The position numbers and the translations under genes are program-made. DNA of 64,000 nucleotides. Source: a virus. Its lineage: Duplodnaviria; Caudoviricetes. The notes beneath the pieces were generated by a model, which worked only from the letters and a program-made list of their open reading frames with translations, was not told the origin of the DNA and ran no database searches. Shown here one piece after another: positions 6,199-23,006 of this stretch. Location of the stretch: the IMG/VR virus record IMGVR_UViG_2061766007_000586, positions 64,001 to 128,000 of that record. One strand, given 5' to 3'. Each line of letters begins with the position of its first letter. Position 1 is the first letter of the stretch.

Positions 6199-6656
6199 TT
6201 ATACCATCTCCAACCTGTAAGTTTAAGAATTCCTTTAGGACGAGGAATAGGTGTCCAGATAAAAGATCCAAACCGAAAGGCATGTTTCTCTTGCCAAACA
6301 TATCGATCCTTTTTCTGAGGATGAATATTCACACAATATTCATGAACATTATTGTTTTCAAGAACAGTAATGTAAGCGCAATCATGAATACCATTTTGAA
6401 GATCATATCGTACATCTTTCCACGATAAACCATCAACACCAGAATTCCATTCCCATTTGTTACTCTTCCTATAATCATCTGATTCTATTGTAGGAAACCA
6501 TTCCTTACGCTCAAAATTAGTGATTAATGATTTCCAACGTATATCTTTCGAATTAAACGGATCTTGTTCAATACGAATTAATTTATCAGATATATTTAGA
6601 AAAGCATATTTTTTCTCTCCTGATAGAATAGCTTTTTTAACTGTTTGAAAGTTCAT
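6195..6656 (-). CDS. Hypothetical Trp-rich protein
   Basis: 153-aa ORF with GAGGT RBS. Confidence 0.65.
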   Translation of the reverse strand: MNFQTVKKAILSGEKKYAFLNISDKLIRIEQDPFNSKDIRWKSLITNFERKEWFPTIESDDYRKSNKWEWNSGVDGLSWKDVRYDLQNGIHDCAYITVLENNNVHEYCVNIHPQKKDRYVWQEKHAFRFGSFIWTPIPRPKGILKLTGWRWYK

Positions 6657-8451: not shown

Positions 8452-9714
8452 TTAGCGAGATTTAAAAGATAAGAGAATTACATATAAGATAAAACCTAAA
8501 CGTAGTCCTACTAACGTTCCAGCTCTAGTATATTTAGTATGAGTTGTAACAAAGTTATCAACACTGTTCTTGATACAAAGAATATCAGCATCAATAACAC
8601 GAGATGCTGTAAATGTGTTCTTAGCTAATTGTAGAATAGCAAGGTTGTTCTTCATATCAATACCGGATAATGCTGCACGTCTATAGATCTTCTGAATTAG
8701 TTCTTCTAGAAGTTTAGCATAACCTATGTACAGAGTATTATTAGTTTTATCTTTTACAATTTCATAAGACGTCTTATCACGAACCTGCTGTGTTGCCATA
8801 GCAGAGAACGCAATTAAAAGCGTATTAATCATGTCTGGTCTTGTATTCGCTGCTAACTTAGCTGCTAGCTTTACAAACTTTGGATCAAGGAATTCATTTG
8901 TATTGAGAACAATCGAAGTAATACGAGAGATCATAACATCAATCGTACCTTGTAAGTTCCCAAGCATCTTACCTTTTTCTTGATCTTCTGTAACTAAACT
9001 AGTTGCTACATAAGCATTACCTTTTGCGTTATTCTCGTAATATGATTCAGACACTAATACAATTTTACGACAAAGTCTTGTATGAATATCTGAGATTGAT
9101 TTTACAATAGCAGCATCAGGTCCAAAGTTTTTGAATACATTCGCATAAATACTGTTTGGTATTAAAGCAGCATTTGCATGTTTATAAATTAGTTTCTTCC
9201 AAGTATCTGTTTCACTATTCTTGATATCAGACTTTGCTGTTAAATTATCAATTGTGTATTGCATAACTGCTTCTTTAGCTCCATATGGAAATTGCATTGC
9301 TACTTTCCCACAGAAGAATTTATAATTCAACAGTTTCAATAAGTCTAAGCAAGCTTGATAACAGAGTTGTTTTGTCATCGCATGAACTACACCTTCGTTA
9401 TGGAGATGATAGATCAACCAGATAACAAGAAGATTAAATTCATTGGAAGTCACATTGAAATTCTTATCAACAGCAGGACTGCTTTTAATACACTGCATAA
9501 ATGTACGTTTATCTACACTGAAGATAGAGAAGATAGCATCTGCATCTTTGGGATACCAGTATGCTTTTACTACCCCTAACATCGGCGTATTAAACGCTAG
9601 AGGATTCTTGTCACGAACTTCATACATTGCTGTAAAACGAGACAGCTCCATTAAGACCTGTCTCGTTATTGTTGGTGCACAAGCCTCTGAAAATAATTCT
9701 TTCAAAGTGGCCAT
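8452..9714 (-). CDS. phiKZ-like virion structural protein
   Basis: 420 aa; motifs FNVTSNEFNL, LNYKF, SDIHTRL, ASR and terminal R.G..LY.IL match a conserved phiKZ-group structural family (from memory). Confidence 0.65.
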   Translation of the reverse strand: MATLKELFSEACAPTITRQVLMELSRFTAMYEVRDKNPLAFNTPMLGVVKAYWYPKDADAIFSIFSVDKRTFMQCIKSSPAVDKNFNVTSNEFNLLVIWLIYHLHNEGVVHAMTKQLCYQACLDLLKLLNYKFFCGKVAMQFPYGAKEAVMQYTIDNLTAKSDIKNSETDTWKKLIYKHANAALIPNSIYANVFKNFGPDAAIVKSISDIHTRLCRKIVLVSESYYENNAKGNAYVATSLVTEDQEKGKMLGNLQGTIDVMISRITSIVLNTNEFLDPKFVKLAAKLAANTRPDMINTLLIAFSAMATQQVRDKTSYEIVKDKTNNTLYIGYAKLLEELIQKIYRRAALSGIDMKNNLAILQLAKNTFTASRVIDADILCIKNSVDNFVTTHTKYTRAGTLVGLRLGFILYVILLSFKSR

Positions 9715-15493: not shown

Positions 15494-16357
15494 TTAAATA
15501 TGATAAGGTAATAAAATTTGGTTTTGATGAAGTTTGGTTTCTATATCTTTTTCTGCTAACAGATACCAAGTCTCTTTTGTCATAGTCTCTATTAGTTTTC
15601 TTTTAGCTCCTCTTTGCAGAGCAGCTTTCATATCTACTTTATCCCCAAGCAAGATATGAGTAGATTGATTAAACGGCAATAAGGGTTTGTTGAATACCAT
15701 CTCACTTAATGCTTCTGCAGTATGTTTAGCTCCAGTGAAGGAAGAGACTAAAATCCACTTATTCATATTAGAGTGAAGGTGATAATCAATAGGATGATGA
15801 CTCACCATCAAAACATTATGAAGATTTTCTGCACTAAGAATATCCTCTTGTAAATGGATGTATGGTGGAATTTTGCCTTCGAAATAAAGCTGAGCAAAAT
15901 TTAATTTCCAATTACCATGTCCATTCTGAGAATACTTAATACGATCTCTTACAATCTGTTCCACTCGAGCAACAAACTGATCAGTAGGAAATCTATAATA
16001 AGTAGAAGGTATGATTGTAGAATAATCTGCTATGTATACTCGAATATATCGAACCATAGGTGTAGTTGGCATACATGCAAAATCTGCTTCAATATTTGAA
16101 ACTAGAATCTGAAGTGTTCGCATGACATTATCAGCTACTGCTTCTAATGTATTTTTAGCAACCATATCTTTTTTCAGTTCAGTTGAGTAAACTGTACTAC
16201 AGACATTTCGACAAATTGTGGAAGCATTAATTAAAATAGTATCAATATCACAATTGGGTGATAATAAAATATTTTGAATTGTTTCACTAACGGGTTGACT
16301 ACCTAAGTCTAATGTACTACCATCTAGACTCATGGTATTAATCAGTTCCTGTTCCAT
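15494..16357 (-). CDS. Conserved phiKZ-group protein (gp66-like position), possible degenerate nuclease fold
   Basis: 287 aa, overlapping the sbcD stop; motifs ILINASTICRN, SHHPID, SFTG, LPFN...LLGD. Confidence 0.55.
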   Translation of the reverse strand: MEQELINTMSLDGSTLDLGSQPVSETIQNILLSPNCDIDTILINASTICRNVCSTVYSTELKKDMVAKNTLEAVADNVMRTLQILVSNIEADFACMPTTPMVRYIRVYIADYSTIIPSTYYRFPTDQFVARVEQIVRDRIKYSQNGHGNWKLNFAQLYFEGKIPPYIHLQEDILSAENLHNVLMVSHHPIDYHLHSNMNKWILVSSFTGAKHTAEALSEMVFNKPLLPFNQSTHILLGDKVDMKAALQRGAKRKLIETMTKETWYLLAEKDIETKLHQNQILLPYHI

Positions 16358-17462
16358 CTAAAATCTCCTTGATTCTATCCCTAGTGAGCTCGGGATATTT
16401 TTGATGGACGTTGTCATAAATCAGATCAGGTAGATTACTTACTGTTATTAAAGGAAGATCATGCGTAATATCAGTTTGATACATCATGTCTTCTTTCTTA
16501 GCTTCAGTAATATGTTTTTCTGTGAAAACTGCATAAGGATATTTATCCTTCATTGCAGGCATTACAGCACTACCATCTCCGATTAACCGGATATGCATGA
16601 CGCGATTTAAAGCATTCTCGTAAATGAATGCTTGTTCAACGCGTCTATCTAAATACGACATTACCTCTTCTGTCGACGGATGTAAACTTAGATCAATTGT
16701 AATAAAAGGAACTGCCTCTTTATTCCTTATAAATCTAACAATTGATGTATGTTTATCAGGATCGTACTCTGCTGTCCAAAACCCTTTATCTTCTTCTTCA
16801 GCGTGTCTGAATCGTTCAAAGCTTCCACCAGAGATTACTTTATTCCAAATGCTAGGACTATGTACATGACCATTAAAAATATGACAACGTACTTTTGATT
16901 CTAACTTATTGTAGTCCAAACAATCATGTGGTCTAGTCGGTATCGTAGAAGGAAGTAAATGATCCCAAAAACCATGACAACAGAAATAATCTACAGCATC
17001 AAGATGATTTGCATCTAATACATCTAAGATAGCTTGTGTCACATCTTCATGTGGTTGATCATCTGGACAATACAAAATGTCAAGATTATACGGTGTAAAT
17101 CTCTCTACTTCAATCTTTTCAATAATCCGAATAAGTGGAATATCTTTGTACATAGGTATTTCTCTTGCACGATCAATAAATAAACGATTTTGATATCGAT
17201 CATGGGAGAATGTACCACGCAATACTCTAACGTAAATATGATTCTTGACTGCTAATTCAATTAATTCATCGATGATAAAGAGTGCAATGATGCCAGCATC
17301 AGAATTGAGGTTCAGAAGACAATCAAAGAAATCTCCACCCAACAATAGTAATTGTGCAGTTTCAATTTCTGGATACGCATACTTGCGTAAACTTTCATGT
17401 ATTCGATCAAGATAAACTTTTGGAGCACCAATATGAATATCTGTCAAGAATACAATTTTCAT
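16338..17462 (-). CDS. sbcD: SbcD/Mre11-like metallophosphoesterase nuclease
   Basis: DIHIG, GGDFFD, LRGTFSHD, HG, GHVH, GSFER...EEEDKG motifs. Confidence 0.9.
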   Translation of the reverse strand: MKIVFLTDIHIGAPKVYLDRIHESLRKYAYPEIETAQLLLLGGDFFDCLLNLNSDAGIIALFIIDELIELAVKNHIYVRVLRGTFSHDRYQNRLFIDRAREIPMYKDIPLIRIIEKIEVERFTPYNLDILYCPDDQPHEDVTQAILDVLDANHLDAVDYFCCHGFWDHLLPSTIPTRPHDCLDYNKLESKVRCHIFNGHVHSPSIWNKVISGGSFERFRHAEEEDKGFWTAEYDPDKHTSIVRFIRNKEAVPFITIDLSLHPSTEEVMSYLDRRVEQAFIYENALNRVMHIRLIGDGSAVMPAMKDKYPYAVFTEKHITEAKKEDMMYQTDITHDLPLITVSNLPDLIYDNVHQKYPELTRDRIKEILDGTGTD

Positions 17463-18124
17463 AAGAATTCTTCTACCTCTTCCGAACCTGGATTTACTGG
17501 AGTATTATTTCCTTGATATTGCCTAATGATTTCTTCAGATAATTCTTCTCCTGAATCTTCATTCTGCTGAACAGTTTTACCTGACTGAGCTAATGCTTGA
17601 GCTGCCATCTCTTGAGCTTGTTTCTTATTTGTATCAAGCTTATTCTGATCAGTCATGAGATTAATCGCAGTCTGTAAACTTTTGCTATAAGTTTGTTTCT
17701 TACGATCAAATCTATCATCAATGTCTGTTGCCGCAAGATTGTTGAATGCTTGCATGATATTCACACCATCTTTTCCAAGATTGTTCACAACACCAATCTT
17801 GTTATAAATGGCAGGTAGAGTTAAAACAACATTATCAGGTTTCAATAATTCCTCTACTGTAGAGAAACTCATATCTTTTACAATATAGACAGGATGATAA
17901 GGATCAATCCTATTCATGTATTCAAGAGACAAACCTCTTAATTCCTCTGCATTGATATCGCCAGATGTTTCAAACAATCTCTTGTACTGTTCAAAATCTT
18001 CTGTACTCATAATGTTCTTACGATATACTTGAAGATTGAACAAATGTGCCAGCTTCTTCGATTCTTCTGGGTCATCTAATCGATCAAAATCGACTGTACA
18101 ATTATCGTTGTTCTTTAAGTTCAT
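17459..18124 (-). CDS. Hypothetical protein
   Basis: Start moved to MNLKNND (18124) after AAGGAGGT; the longer ORF would begin inside a terminator. Confidence 0.7.
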   Translation of the reverse strand: MNLKNNDNCTVDFDRLDDPEESKKLAHLFNLQVYRKNIMSTEDFEQYKRLFETSGDINAEELRGLSLEYMNRIDPYHPVYIVKDMSFSTVEELLKPDNVVLTLPAIYNKIGVVNNLGKDGVNIMQAFNNLAATDIDDRFDRKKQTYSKSLQTAINLMTDQNKLDTNKKQAQEMAAQALAQSGKTVQQNEDSGEELSEEIIRQYQGNNTPVNPGSEEVEEFL

Positions 18125-18178
18125 GTGTACCTCCTTGTGTGTATAAAGTATATAATAAAAATTATTTAAAATTTTTAA

Positions 18179-18206
18179 TAGGATGTGCTCAGATGAGCAC
18201 ATCCTA
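18179..18206 (-). terminator. Terminator hairpin
   Basis: TAGGATGTGCTCA-ga-TGAGCACATCCTA. Confidence 0.7.
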
Positions 18207-18211
18207 CAAAA

Positions 18212-18601
18212 TTAATGAGCAAGCACAAATAAACCACTATGATCTTTTTTAATACGTTCCATTTGAATAACTGGATTTCCGATACTATCAATAATACGAA
18301 GATCCATAGTGTAACATGTTGGGTCGTTTTCATCAGGAATTACCTTGATATCACAAGTATATTCAGGATAATAATGATGAATAGCCTCGTTCAATAATTG
18401 CTGAATACCTGGCACGAGCTTAGAGCTATCTTCAGTATATTTTGCCATGCTCTTTCTCATACTCAGTAAACTATCATCATACCAAGATGAGATCCATCCT
18501 GGATTAAACATAAGAAATTTTAATAAACTAATCATCTTGTCTGATTTATTCTCAGCAAGTGGATGATTAATATCAAGTTGAGGTACAACTGCTTTTGCCA
18601 T
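18212..18601 (-). CDS. Conserved small phiKZ-group protein (gp62-like), probably virion
   Basis: Start MAKAVVPQL at 18601 after AAGGAGA; has its own late-type motif at 18626-18634 and flanking hairpins. Confidence 0.6.
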   Translation of the reverse strand: MAKAVVPQLDINHPLAENKSDKMISLLKFLMFNPGWISSWYDDSLLSMRKSMAKYTEDSSKLVPGIQQLLNEAIHHYYPEYTCDIKVIPDENDPTCYTMDLRIIDSIGNPVIQMERIKKDHSGLFVLAH

Positions 18602-18625
18602 AATTCTATCTCCTTCAATAAGATT

Positions 18626-18634
18626 CATAAAATG
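18626..18634 (-). promoter_or_regulatory. Late-type promoter motif CATTTTATG
   Basis: Identical core to the sites at 4201 and 48353. Confidence 0.6.
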
Positions 18635-18645
18635 AAAAAACAAAG

Positions 18646-18676
18646 CTGTGCTGCATGGAAATTCCATGCAGCACAG
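18646..18676 (-). terminator. Intrinsic terminator
   Basis: CTGTGCTGCATGGA/TCCATGCAGCACAG followed by a U-rich tract. Confidence 0.8.
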
Positions 18677-18682
18677 TGAAGT

Positions 18683-19324
18683 TCAGACAGAAATGGTATT
18701 ACTTAAATCAGTAATATCTCTTCTTTGTCCATCCTCGCCAAGTTCTCTGGCTAATTCTTCCATTAAGAACTTACGAGATTGTTCGAGAATATCCATTTGC
18801 TCTTCCGTCATCTGGAAATCTATCTCTGCCGTATCATAGGTAGAGACGATAGCTTCAGGAAGATTGTCAGCATCGTCTGGATGAATTGTAATTCTACCAT
18901 TCTCAAGCTGTTTGCCATAGACATCCTCATCTGGGAATGTTGCTGGATCCCAGTTCCAAGCAGACAGTTTACCTTCTTTGAATAATTCAAATACGCCTGG
19001 TGTCATCAGGAGTGCAGGTTGCATACAAGCTGGCGCTGCAGCTAGTGCTTCTTCACTATCTATCACACGCCAATGTTCAGGATACAGAACACTTTGTGTA
19101 ACTTCACGTATCAGATTATCAGTTCGAGCAATTTGTCCTTGGATCAATCCCATGAAATTGCGATAATGCTCATTCATAGGATTTGAAATTTGGCCAAAGG
19201 CCACAGAAGCCGTACCACCCCATTTAGAATTGATGTTATCAAGCACAACTTGGCTTTGTACTCCACCAATCAATCCATAAAGTGTAGGTACGTTATCTAT
19301 TTGTTGTAAGGGTGCTACGAACAT
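18683..19324 (-). CDS. Conserved phiKZ-group hypothetical protein (gp59-like position)
   Basis: 213 aa; AP..MQ..L...P motif and terminal DIT; located downstream of the beta-prime gene. Confidence 0.55.
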   Translation of the reverse strand: MFVAPLQQIDNVPTLYGLIGGVQSQVVLDNINSKWGGTASVAFGQISNPMNEHYRNFMGLIQGQIARTDNLIREVTQSVLYPEHWRVIDSEEALAAAPACMQPALLMTPGVFELFKEGKLSAWNWDPATFPDEDVYGKQLENGRITIHPDDADNLPEAIVSTYDTAEIDFQMTEEQMDILEQSRKFLMEELARELGEDGQRRDITDLSNTISV

Positions 19325-19350: not shown

Positions 19351-19746
19351 TTACTCAATTTCTTCCATGGTTACAGTTTCAGCAACCGTCGTCTGTTCCT
19401 CAGGTTGTGTTTCACCTTCAGTAGCAGAAGCTGATTCTTCTGTTGTTTCAACAGAGATCTTAGTTTCAGCAGCCGCTTTCTCTGCTGCTTTCTTCTTATC
19501 AATCTCTGCCTTAACTGCGTTGACAAGATCTTTGATTGTATGGATCGATTCAATTGTCGGATCATCAATATCGATGAAATAGTTTTCTTCACACGACATG
19601 ATGAGTTCCTGAATTTCATACACATCAAGTTTCAGATCATCAACTAAATTTGAGTCCATGGTAATCGAATCGTTCAAGAGTTTATCGTTTGCTTGATAGA
19701 ACTCCTGAATAATCGATTTAATGAGATCGAAGATTTGTTTTGACAT
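19351..19746 (-). CDS. Acyl carrier protein-like protein lacking the phosphopantetheinylation serine
   Basis: ITMDSNLVDDLKLDVYEIQELIMSCEENYFIDIDD...IHTIKDLVNAV aligns without gaps to AcpP, but DSL is DVY; acidic tail. Confidence 0.8.
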   Translation of the reverse strand: MSKQIFDLIKSIIQEFYQANDKLLNDSITMDSNLVDDLKLDVYEIQELIMSCEENYFIDIDDPTIESIHTIKDLVNAVKAEIDKKKAAEKAAAETKISVETTEESASATEGETQPEEQTTVAETVTMEEIE

Positions 19747-21266: not shown

Positions 21267-21303
21267 AACATCAGGTACAGTTTATTCAACCATACCTGAT
21301 GTT
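21267..21303 (-). terminator. Terminator after the chimallin-like gene
   Basis: AACATCAGGTA/TACCTGATGTT inverted repeat followed by a U-tract. Confidence 0.65.
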
Positions 21304-21314
21304 ACAGAATTCAA

Positions 21315-23006
21315 TCAATGATAAGCCATGTAGATTCCGTTGTTATAGCCCTGGCTCATGAGACCGTTGGTCAGCGGCACATTCGTCATCTGGCTAATGA
21401 GAGACGGAAGAGTGATCGGAGTATCGAGAGAAGTCGGAGTGACATACTTCACGACACTGGCAAGGAGCTGAGTCAGATAATTGATATAGCCATTGTTGAA
21501 GAACACGCCAGTGGAACGATACGTGATCTTAGCGGAATCTTCGCCGAGCAGCGAAGCAATGGCCTTCATGCGATAATCAGACTGAGCATACTGCTCGAGG
21601 AAGGAGTTGATGACCGGAGTCTGCGTCTTAGTCGCAGTGACAAAGTTGAGATAATCGCCGAAGCGAGTATCGAGACGCTTACCTTCGAAGAGCATATTGC
21701 CTTCATAATTCGTGAAGATGTACTCGGTATTGATAACGTTGTAGTTAAATCCGAGACCAGGAGTAGTGAGTCCATAATAATCAGCAGTGCATTCGCACAT
21801 CGTGATCTGATTGTTAGCAACCCAAACCGGATTCGCTTCAGTACCAATATTCGACTTACGAACATCATAGAGAAGTTCGAGCTTCGGAAGGTGTGCACGA
21901 CCTTCCGGAATATCGATCATGATACCAGCAGGCAGAACATGAGGAGTCATCTCAATATTCATTTCTTCAGGAGAACTGAAGAACTTGAGAGTCTTGTTCT
22001 GGACATCCTGGAACAGATAACCGAGGTTCGGCTGATCCTTGGCGAACGTTGAATACGGCTTCTTCCAAAGGTTCATAGAAGCAATATGATTTGCAACGAT
22101 CGGCAGAGCGATATTGAGTGCTGCAAGAACCGGAACTTCAGCCGTGATATTGGTTATCACAAGAACTGGATAGAACTTCGCAACATTGTCGATATTCGTC
22201 TTAATGAAGCGAGTATAACCACCGACTGCCAGCATAGGAGTACGGAGATAATCCTGCGTATACTGATAACCCTGGAAGTTGCGAGAAGTATCATCGAACT
22301 CCAGGAGAACGCCCCAGTCAACACGATCCTGGATGACATGAGGAGACTTACGATCGATGTAAGCCTTAACAGCGTTGACGTTCGTATTAGCGGAAATCTT
22401 CATGTCACGATAGACAGAAGCGTTGATCTTGATGCTCGGATCATAAGCCACGAACGTATTGTAGATGTGAGCACCCATGCGATCTGCACGAGTATAGTCA
22501 CCAGCTTCCTTGTCAACGACAATGGACTGGACCAGATTAAGCTTGTTGCTAGTCTGGATAGCCGGAACACGGTCGATCAGAGGAACAAGGCACGGATTGT
22601 AAGATTCCGTGAAGAGGAGCAGGATAGCATTTCCTGTACTCTTGTCGATAAGCACACGATATTCACCCGCGATGCTGTCGGTACCAGGCATGACATCAAC
22701 TTTGCGAGGATGCATCTTGATACTGTCAATCGTATTGATGATATCTTCAATGTACTTCGTTCCTTCAGGACTCAGAGAACTGATCTGATGGAAGAAACCG
22801 ATAACATCTTTACGAGTTGCGGTAGATTCCACATTTGCAGTTTCCTGGATCGGCGGAGGAGGTGGCATTACCGGAGGTGCAGGCGGTGCAGGAGGAACTA
22901 CCGGTGCAGTGTTCACGGTTTCATCGGACGTCTCGATCTGGACAGAGAGACCTTTCTTGCTCGTTGCAGCTGTAGCTGCAGACTTCGTCTTGACGACTTT
23001 ACCCAT
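21315..23006 (-). CDS. chmA: Probable chimallin (phage nucleus shell protein)
   Basis: 563 aa, immediately upstream of nvRNAP beta-prime-N as in Chimalliviridae; early promoter; very strong codon bias; disordered Pro-rich N-terminus; VGGYTRFI...FYPVLVITNI segment resembles ChmA as I recall it. Confidence 0.7.
   Translation of the reverse strand: MGKVVKTKSAATAATSKKGLSVQIETSDETVNTAPVVPPAPPAPPVMPPPPPIQETANVESTATRKDVIGFFHQISSLSPEGTKYIEDIINTIDSIKMHPRKVDVMPGTDSIAGEYRVLIDKSTGNAILLLFTESYNPCLVPLIDRVPAIQTSNKLNLVQSIVVDKEAGDYTRADRMGAHIYNTFVAYDPSIKINASVYRDMKISANTNVNAVKAYIDRKSPHVIQDRVDWGVLLEFDDTSRNFQGYQYTQDYLRTPMLAVGGYTRFIKTNIDNVAKFYPVLVITNITAEVPVLAALNIALPIVANHIASMNLWKKPYSTFAKDQPNLGYLFQDVQNKTLKFFSSPEEMNIEMTPHVLPAGIMIDIPEGRAHLPKLELLYDVRKSNIGTEANPVWVANNQITMCECTADYYGLTTPGLGFNYNVINTEYIFTNYEGNMLFEGKRLDTRFGDYLNFVTATKTQTPVINSFLEQYAQSDYRMKAIASLLGEDSAKITYRSTGVFFNNGYINYLTQLLASVVKYVTPTSLDTPITLPSLISQMTNVPLTNGLMSQGYNNGIYMAYH

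Follow-up and report, generated by a model that had tools for sequence, protein, structure and literature searches.

A jumbo-phage protein with the acyl carrier protein fold lacks the cofactor serine and may serve as a protein-binding adaptor

We describe a phage gene whose product is homologous to acyl carrier proteins (ACPs) but has no serine at the position where ACPs bear their phosphopantetheine cofactor. The gene lies in a window of 64,000 nucleotides, by which we mean the whole stretch of DNA that was analysed (bases 64001-128000 of a 318.6-kb virus record with the completeness rating complete), and it occupies a fixed slot between a gene for a non-virion RNA polymerase (nvRNAP) and a second conserved phage gene, which encodes a 213-residue protein (Table 1). 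Since the cofactor serine is lost, this ACP-like protein most likely acts by binding other proteins, and the fixed slot suggests that its partner belongs to the phage and not to the host. With moderate confidence, and on the basis of that slot, we propose that a former ACP has become a non-carrier protein-binding module or adaptor that would work with other proteins of the phage.

Table 1. The ACP-like gene and neighbouring features, in positions of the window
Feature	Position	Strand	Basis or remark
Serine-less ACP-fold protein P0001, 131 aa	19351..19746 (stop codon included)	-	ORF and translation, ACP homology, dN/dS
ACP-like four-helix domain, residues 1-85	19492..19746	-	AlphaFold2 model and Foldseek
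GTG codon, Val42, at the phosphopantetheine-bearing Ser36 position	19621..19623	-	HMMER alignments to solved ACPs
Acidic C-terminal extension, residues 86-131 (46 aa)	19354..19491	-	charge, pLDDT
nvRNAP beta-prime N-terminal half, 489 aa	19759..21228	-	phrog_2987, PF00623, PhiPA3 gp054
Conserved 213-aa protein gene	18683..19324	-	always adjacent; identity 50-100% across relatives
Terminator-like hairpin, 16 pairs and T-run, between the 563-aa gene and beta-prime N	21267..21303	-	
Terminator-like hairpin, 14 pairs (8 G-C) and T-run, directly 3' of the 213-aa gene	18646..18676	-	

The gene is preceded by a Shine-Dalgarno sequence (AAGGA) 6 nt 5' of its ATG and contains no tandem repeats. Compared with the NCBIfam ACP models, its product P0001 gave E values from 8.4e-12 (the best, for an ACP subfamily) to 1e-6, and it also matched PHROG 5934 'acyl carrier protein' (E 3.6e-8) as well as 113 solved ACP sequences (HMMER, best E 2e-8). 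A profile built from 18 family members, run against the PDB, returned ACPs only (68 sequences, best E 6.8e-8). Nonetheless, every curated cut-off for the ACP family was missed: P0001 scored 38.4 bits against TIGR00517 (E 8.3e-10, curated cut-off 70.45), 44.8 bits against NF002148 (curated cut-off 71) and 14.4 bits against the Pfam PP-binding model PF00550 (E 0.045, cut-off 20.8).

At the level of residues, positions 3-82 align to residues 4-79 of Thermus ACP (1x3o) with a single insertion of four residues in loop I. The alignments to residues 17-75 of Aquifex ACP (2ehs; residues 24-82 of P0001) and to residues 18-72 of E. coli ACP (1acp; residues 24-78) are free of gaps. Identity to genuine ACPs reaches about 47% over 55-60 residues. 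The first 85 or so residues of P0001 are a true ACP homologue, descended from a type II ACP. Among phages, a megablast search of the gene region against phage records gave no match, tblastn against 50,697 phage records gave only four weak matches, and neither the family profile nor a profile of the 213-aa protein found a match in viral contigs.

The structural prediction is consistent with this assignment. Using a 127-sequence alignment dominated by genuine ACPs, AlphaFold2 modelled the core with a pLDDT of about 87-93 and placed helices at residues 2-16, 42-56, 62-66 and 71-95. The top PDB matches of this model in Foldseek were all ACPs (target-normalised TM 0.75-0.89, rmsd about 2 A). As modelled, the core is an ACP four-helix fold. 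Prediction from the 18 family sequences alone yielded a pLDDT of 54, and that model was unusable.

The alignment to 1acp sets an offset of six, so that residue n of P0001 corresponds to residue n-6 of the E. coli protein and Val42 stands at Ser36. Where ACPs read L-G-A-D-S-L-D, P0001 reads L-K-L-D-V-Y-E. The substitution is shared by all relatives that we found, about 26 sequences in total, comprising 18 aligned family members, five near-identical copies and three distant positional orthologues. In the 18-sequence alignment, the Ser36 column holds proline (13), valine (2), threonine (2) or asparagine (1) and never serine, compared with serine in 102 of the 109 other ACP matches. Nine copies at 86-100% identity carry V, T or M at this position. 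A profile search added orthologues at 29-40% identity, and three more distant ones (L014, L015 and L016, with K, E and E at the site) were found via the neighbouring gene; one of these three matches the family profile in hhalign with an E value of 2.5e-5. The old serine position drifts freely in this family.

No serine is conserved across clades at any other position, the complete 318.6-kb genome has no match to the phosphopantetheinyl transferase family PF01648, and no acyl-transfer enzyme is encoded next to the gene. P0001 cannot be a canonical carrier. A preliminary description of this DNA, made from the letters alone, had already reported the change from serine to valine at the GxDSL site and the gapless alignment to AcpP, and both hold in the alignments to solved ACPs. 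The homology on which it relied withstands comparison with ACP models, even at scores below the curated cut-offs, and structure comparison, in which no non-ACP fold was found. The serine loss is also not the one-off decay that might have been feared, as it extends to every homologue found, with no DSL-retaining homologue and no alternative serine conserved across the clades. As to its stronger statement that the protein cannot be phosphopantetheinylated, the missing serine and the lack of a PF01648 match in the phage genome are in line with it.

The ACP-like gene is clearly under purifying selection. Against three close relatives its dN/dS is 0.10-0.23, which is 3-10 times that of four neighbouring genes (0.00-0.09, with a single pair at 0.17), making it the fastest-evolving gene of its block. 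For example, the protein shares 28% identity with its counterpart in the distant relative L003, compared with 72% for beta-prime N, 71% for the 213-aa protein and 77% for an SbcD-like protein.

Across all clades, I9, L38, E44, M50, C52, E53, E54 and D73 are invariant or nearly so; L38, E53 and D73 are near-invariant in ACPs in general as well, and M50, C52, E53 and E54 are the equivalents of M44, L46, E47 and E48 of ACP. By contrast, the recognition helix of ACP has not been kept in its N-terminal half: 14 of the 18 members have lost D35, and the acidic residues E41 and E49 are replaced by a basic one (Arg/Lys), again in 14 of 18 in each case. P0001 itself retains five of the six acidic residues of helix II (the equivalents of D35, D38, E41, E47 and E48) in addition to M44. 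The window's clade is the most ACP-like of the family. TIGR00517 is matched by 12 of the 18 members only, and ACP models find no match in the distant positional orthologues. A tree from 85 columns, made with a quick search, is poorly resolved; a single origin of the family is not contradicted by it, as far as such an alignment can speak to the question.

Compared with bacterial type II AcpP (PF00550, TIGR00517), P0001 is thus alike in its four-helix fold, in homology over about 80 residues, in acidity and in the equivalents of M44, E47 and E48 on helix II. It differs in the loop I insertion, the acidic tail and the scores below cut-off, and the family as a whole differs in the absence of Ser36, with D35 gone and the charges of E41 and E49 reversed in most relatives. 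With respect to serine-less ACP look-alikes of other phages (PHROG 5934 and its relatives), the distinguishing features are the fixed slot behind nvRNAP beta-prime N, the acidic tail and a helix that has drifted from the docking helix of ACP.

The acidic tail of about 45 residues that had been noted earlier is borne out. It has a net charge of -10, contributing to -21 for the whole protein (pI 4.1). Beyond residue 95, the end of helix IV, the model has no secondary structure and a pLDDT of 38-66, and the extension past this point is probably disordered. Acidity is general in the family: the net charge of all 18 members ranges from -18 to -35 and their pI from about 4.05 to 4.2, with 28-45% Asp plus Glu in the tails. 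The orthologue tails measure 38-80 residues (net charge -14 to -28), and they are long and polyanionic throughout clades 1 and 2 (-10 to -28). In clade 3, the most distant, the extensions are short and mildly acidic and the long acidic C-terminal tail is absent; it therefore cannot be a universal functional element. The best-kept element of the clade-2 tails is D-D-Q-L-P-P-P-P-E-[ST]-I-E-I-P-D, which persists even in L014 despite a strongly diverged domain; the window's clade lacks this motif.

We next consider the genomic setting. The gene immediately upstream ends 12 nt 5' of the ACP-like start. It matches phrog_2987 'RNA polymerase beta subunit' (E 5e-86) as well as the Pfam domain RNA_pol_Rpb1_2. 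Among characterised proteins its best match is PhiPA3 gp054, whose annotation gives a similarity to phiKZ gp055, the N-terminal half of nvRNAP beta-prime. The ACP-like gene thus indeed lies directly behind nvRNAP beta-prime, as the preliminary description had stated. On the other side, the 213-aa gene starts 26 nt 3' of the ACP-like stop, and just 3 nt from it in clade 2. The 213-aa protein has no match in Pfam, PHROG, PDB sequences or phage records. It is itself acidic (pI 4.3), which makes simple charge pairing with the ACP-like protein unlikely.

Every contig examined has the same gene order: a gene for a protein of about 570 residues, beta-prime N, the ACP-like gene, the 213-aa gene, a 129-aa gene, a 221-aa gene and the SbcD-like gene. 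The ACP-like gene is in place in 16 of 16 such contigs, nine of which were reached via the ACP-like protein, four via a metagenome scan with the 213-aa protein and two via distant 213-aa proteins, the window being the sixteenth. The slot is kept even when identity between the 213-aa proteins falls to 53%. Two terminator-like hairpins flank the beta-prime N, ACP-like and 213-aa genes, with none between them, both in the window and in L003, where they lie at equivalent positions (6465-6497 and 9144-9174) and differ in sequence from those of the window. The promoter of the three-gene segment was not identified, so read-through from the upstream gene is possible.

PhiPA3 has chimallin, beta-prime N, other genes and SbcD in this order and no ACP-like gene. 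Accordingly, the gene is a lineage-specific insertion into a conserved block. Two PhiPA3 candidates for counterparts were rejected. A correspondence between the 213-aa protein and PhiPA3 gp055 (phiKZ gp59), which follows beta-prime N there, finds no support (BLASTP E 1.9, hhalign probability 1.4%), and the ACP-sized gp056 (89 aa) shows no DSL-type motif or other ACP-like feature when its translation is judged by eye.

This hairpin-delimited slot, shared with beta-prime N and the conserved 213-aa protein, speaks for a phage partner at least as much as for a host target, although adjacency of genes is weak evidence of binding. In the adaptor reading, the ACP-like protein would be made together with these two proteins, and its partner would be a phage protein, either the 213-aa protein or the nvRNAP. 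A putative docking face can be drawn from the conserved residues: it would consist of the C-terminal half of helix II (M50, C52, E53 and E54) together with E44 and D73. The acidic disordered extension could act as a flexible polyanionic arm or, in most relatives, carry a short docking motif (L-P-P-P-P-E-x-I-E-I-P).

A host target was the original proposal. The preliminary description had cast the protein as a permanent apo-ACP decoy of host AcpS, FAS, SpoT or MukB; more fully, such a decoy would tie up PlsB/PlsX, Fab enzymes, AcpS, SpoT, MukB or an ACP-dependent defence protein and so disturb lipids or signalling. P0001 taken by itself would suit this role, given the acidic helix-II residues and M44 that it keeps and its identity of up to about 47% to genuine ACPs over 55-60 residues. 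The fast evolution of the gene also fits a host-directed or arms-race role, since rates above those of the neighbours are frequent in host-interaction genes. Keating, Carey and Cronan reportedly found in 1995 that overproduction of apo-ACP is toxic in E. coli. However, most orthologues in the same slot lack D35 and have a basic residue (Arg or Lys) in place of E41 and of E49, and ACP models no longer match the distant ones at all, which means that the surface needed by a mimic is not preserved. If one of the most conserved bacterial surfaces were being mimicked, it should not drift in this way, and judged by these sequences a faithful mimic of host ACP does not fit. Moreover, the gene belongs to a conserved core segment of the phage, and not to a variable accessory or early host-takeover island. 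We therefore consider the host decoy unlikely. The suggestion that the protein instead serves the phage's own SMC-like protein finds no footing either, as the SbcC-like ATPase is encoded about 17.5 kb away and nothing links it to the ACP-like gene.

The other readings fare less well. As a polyanionic mimic of nucleic acid, domain and tail together would compete with DNA or RNA for a basic groove, on the model of Ocr/ArdA-type anti-restriction, of T7 Gp2-like inhibition of the host RNA polymerase or of a delta-like clearing of the phage polymerase. The strong negative charge of all 18 members, the Asp- and Glu-rich tails and the location beside an RNA polymerase gene are in line with this idea, but the extensions of clade 3 are short and only mildly acidic and the small, globular ACP fold is unlike known DNA-mimic shapes, so that we regard such mimicry as rather improbable. 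Still carrying an acyl or other group on a non-canonical residue would be another way to explain a retained ACP fold. Cys52, which all members of clades 1 and 2 share and which also occurs in clade 3, would be a candidate attachment point, or else another serine. Against this, 16 of 109 ordinary ACPs likewise have cysteine at this core position (ACP L46), the L014 orthologue has valine there, no serine is conserved across clades, and the phage has neither a phosphopantetheinyl transferase nor an acyl-transfer enzyme adjoining the gene. Continued carrier function is accordingly very improbable. Least credible of all is that a captured ACP gene is decaying here and has no function left. Its substitution rate is the highest in the block, but none of the approximately 26 sequences has a broken reading frame, dN/dS is 0.10-0.23, the motifs of helix II and of the tail are kept, and the position is held across phages whose 213-aa proteins have diverged to 53% identity.

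Within the range of phage partners, a more specific proposal is that the jumbo-phage nvRNAP, or a complex that contains the 213-aa protein, has taken on the ACP fold as an accessory or assembly subunit peculiar to this lineage, with the tail as a delta-like arm. The delta subunit (RpoE) of Firmicute RNA polymerase combines a small folded N-terminal domain with a long polyanionic disordered C-terminal tail. The ACP-like protein resembles it in architecture only, and its gene is co-located with that of a polymerase subunit, whereas the folded domain of delta is not an ACP fold. Put this specifically, the proposal is doubtful; if true, it would give the ACP fold a new role, in transcription.

For an ACP that works without its cofactor, the closest established precedent, by analogy, is the mitochondrial ACP of Plasmodium falciparum. 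This protein, which has no phosphopantetheine, is a structural subunit that binds the LYR protein Isd11 together with Nfs1 (Falekun et al. 2021, PMC8547962). Our protein is like it in having lost the serine while being retained under selection, as the dN/dS values and synteny in three clades show. The two differ in their independent origin, and the LYR family (PF05347), to which Isd11 belongs, finds no match in the phage genome.

The annotation of the ACP-like gene is solid. One eukaryotic case is known of a cofactor-free ACP fold used as a binding subunit, and a search of the literature for phage serine-less ACPs found no relevant paper. The beta-prime N, ACP-like and 213-aa genes provide a concrete, testable setting, as they are small and can be co-expressed to seek a complex. 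If the partner were the phage RNA polymerase, the protein would represent a new type of accessory subunit for a poorly understood group of multisubunit polymerases, those of nucleus-forming-like jumbo phages. If it were a host enzyme, a new mechanism of host takeover aimed at lipid metabolism would result.

The same genome contains a second serine-less ACP-like ORF about 12 kb before the window (L001:1249-1725, minus strand, about G000:C1:51741-52217). It encodes 158 residues with the site D-L-G-V-D-G-L, in which serine is replaced by glycine, and a C-terminal hydrophobic anchor. It scores above the cut-off for PF00550 (22.8 bits) and matches an NCBIfam ACP model with an E value of 1.8e-6. We rejected it as a close paralogue of P0001: BLASTP between the two gave an E value of 1.4, and it falls elsewhere in the ACP tree. 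Serine is also absent from two remote metagenome matches. One (P0013) is a tandem two-domain ACP-like protein with the site A-T-L; the other (P0082) has 222 residues, the site F-D-V-F and hydrophobic segments at the N-terminus and C-terminally.

We made some further observations on the block and its surroundings. The most distant relatives have a beta-prime N gene that is split by an interruption about 65 codons from its end. In L016 the gap (L016:3107-3407) contains a group I intron (Rfam RF00028, 54.6 bits, E 1e-11), and L015 has a stretch of about 1 kb without an ORF (L015:1-1040).

The 563-aa gene upstream of beta-prime N (21315-23006, minus strand) holds the slot that chimallin (gp053) occupies in PhiPA3. 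Its product has a poly-Pro N-terminus and evolves fast, with 36% identity to the L003 copy. A pairwise comparison with gp053 gave a weak E value of 0.007, and gp053 searched against the genome gave no match. The 563-aa protein may be a very divergent nuclear-shell protein.

Downstream of the 213-aa gene, the longest-ORF calls at 18212-18667 (151 aa) and 17459-18202 (247 aa), both on the minus strand, are probably too long. Judging by the relatives and by the terminator-like hairpin at 18646-18676, the 129-aa gene starts at 18601 and the 221-aa gene at 18124. Finally, positions 3-1811 of the window (plus strand) are the C-terminal part of an 861-aa open frame that extends upstream to about G000:C1:63328. 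This frame has a weak match to AAA_23 (SbcC/Rad50-type; 22.4 bits, below the cut-off), and its product may be the partner of the SbcD-like protein, whose gene (16338-17462) lies about 15 kb away.
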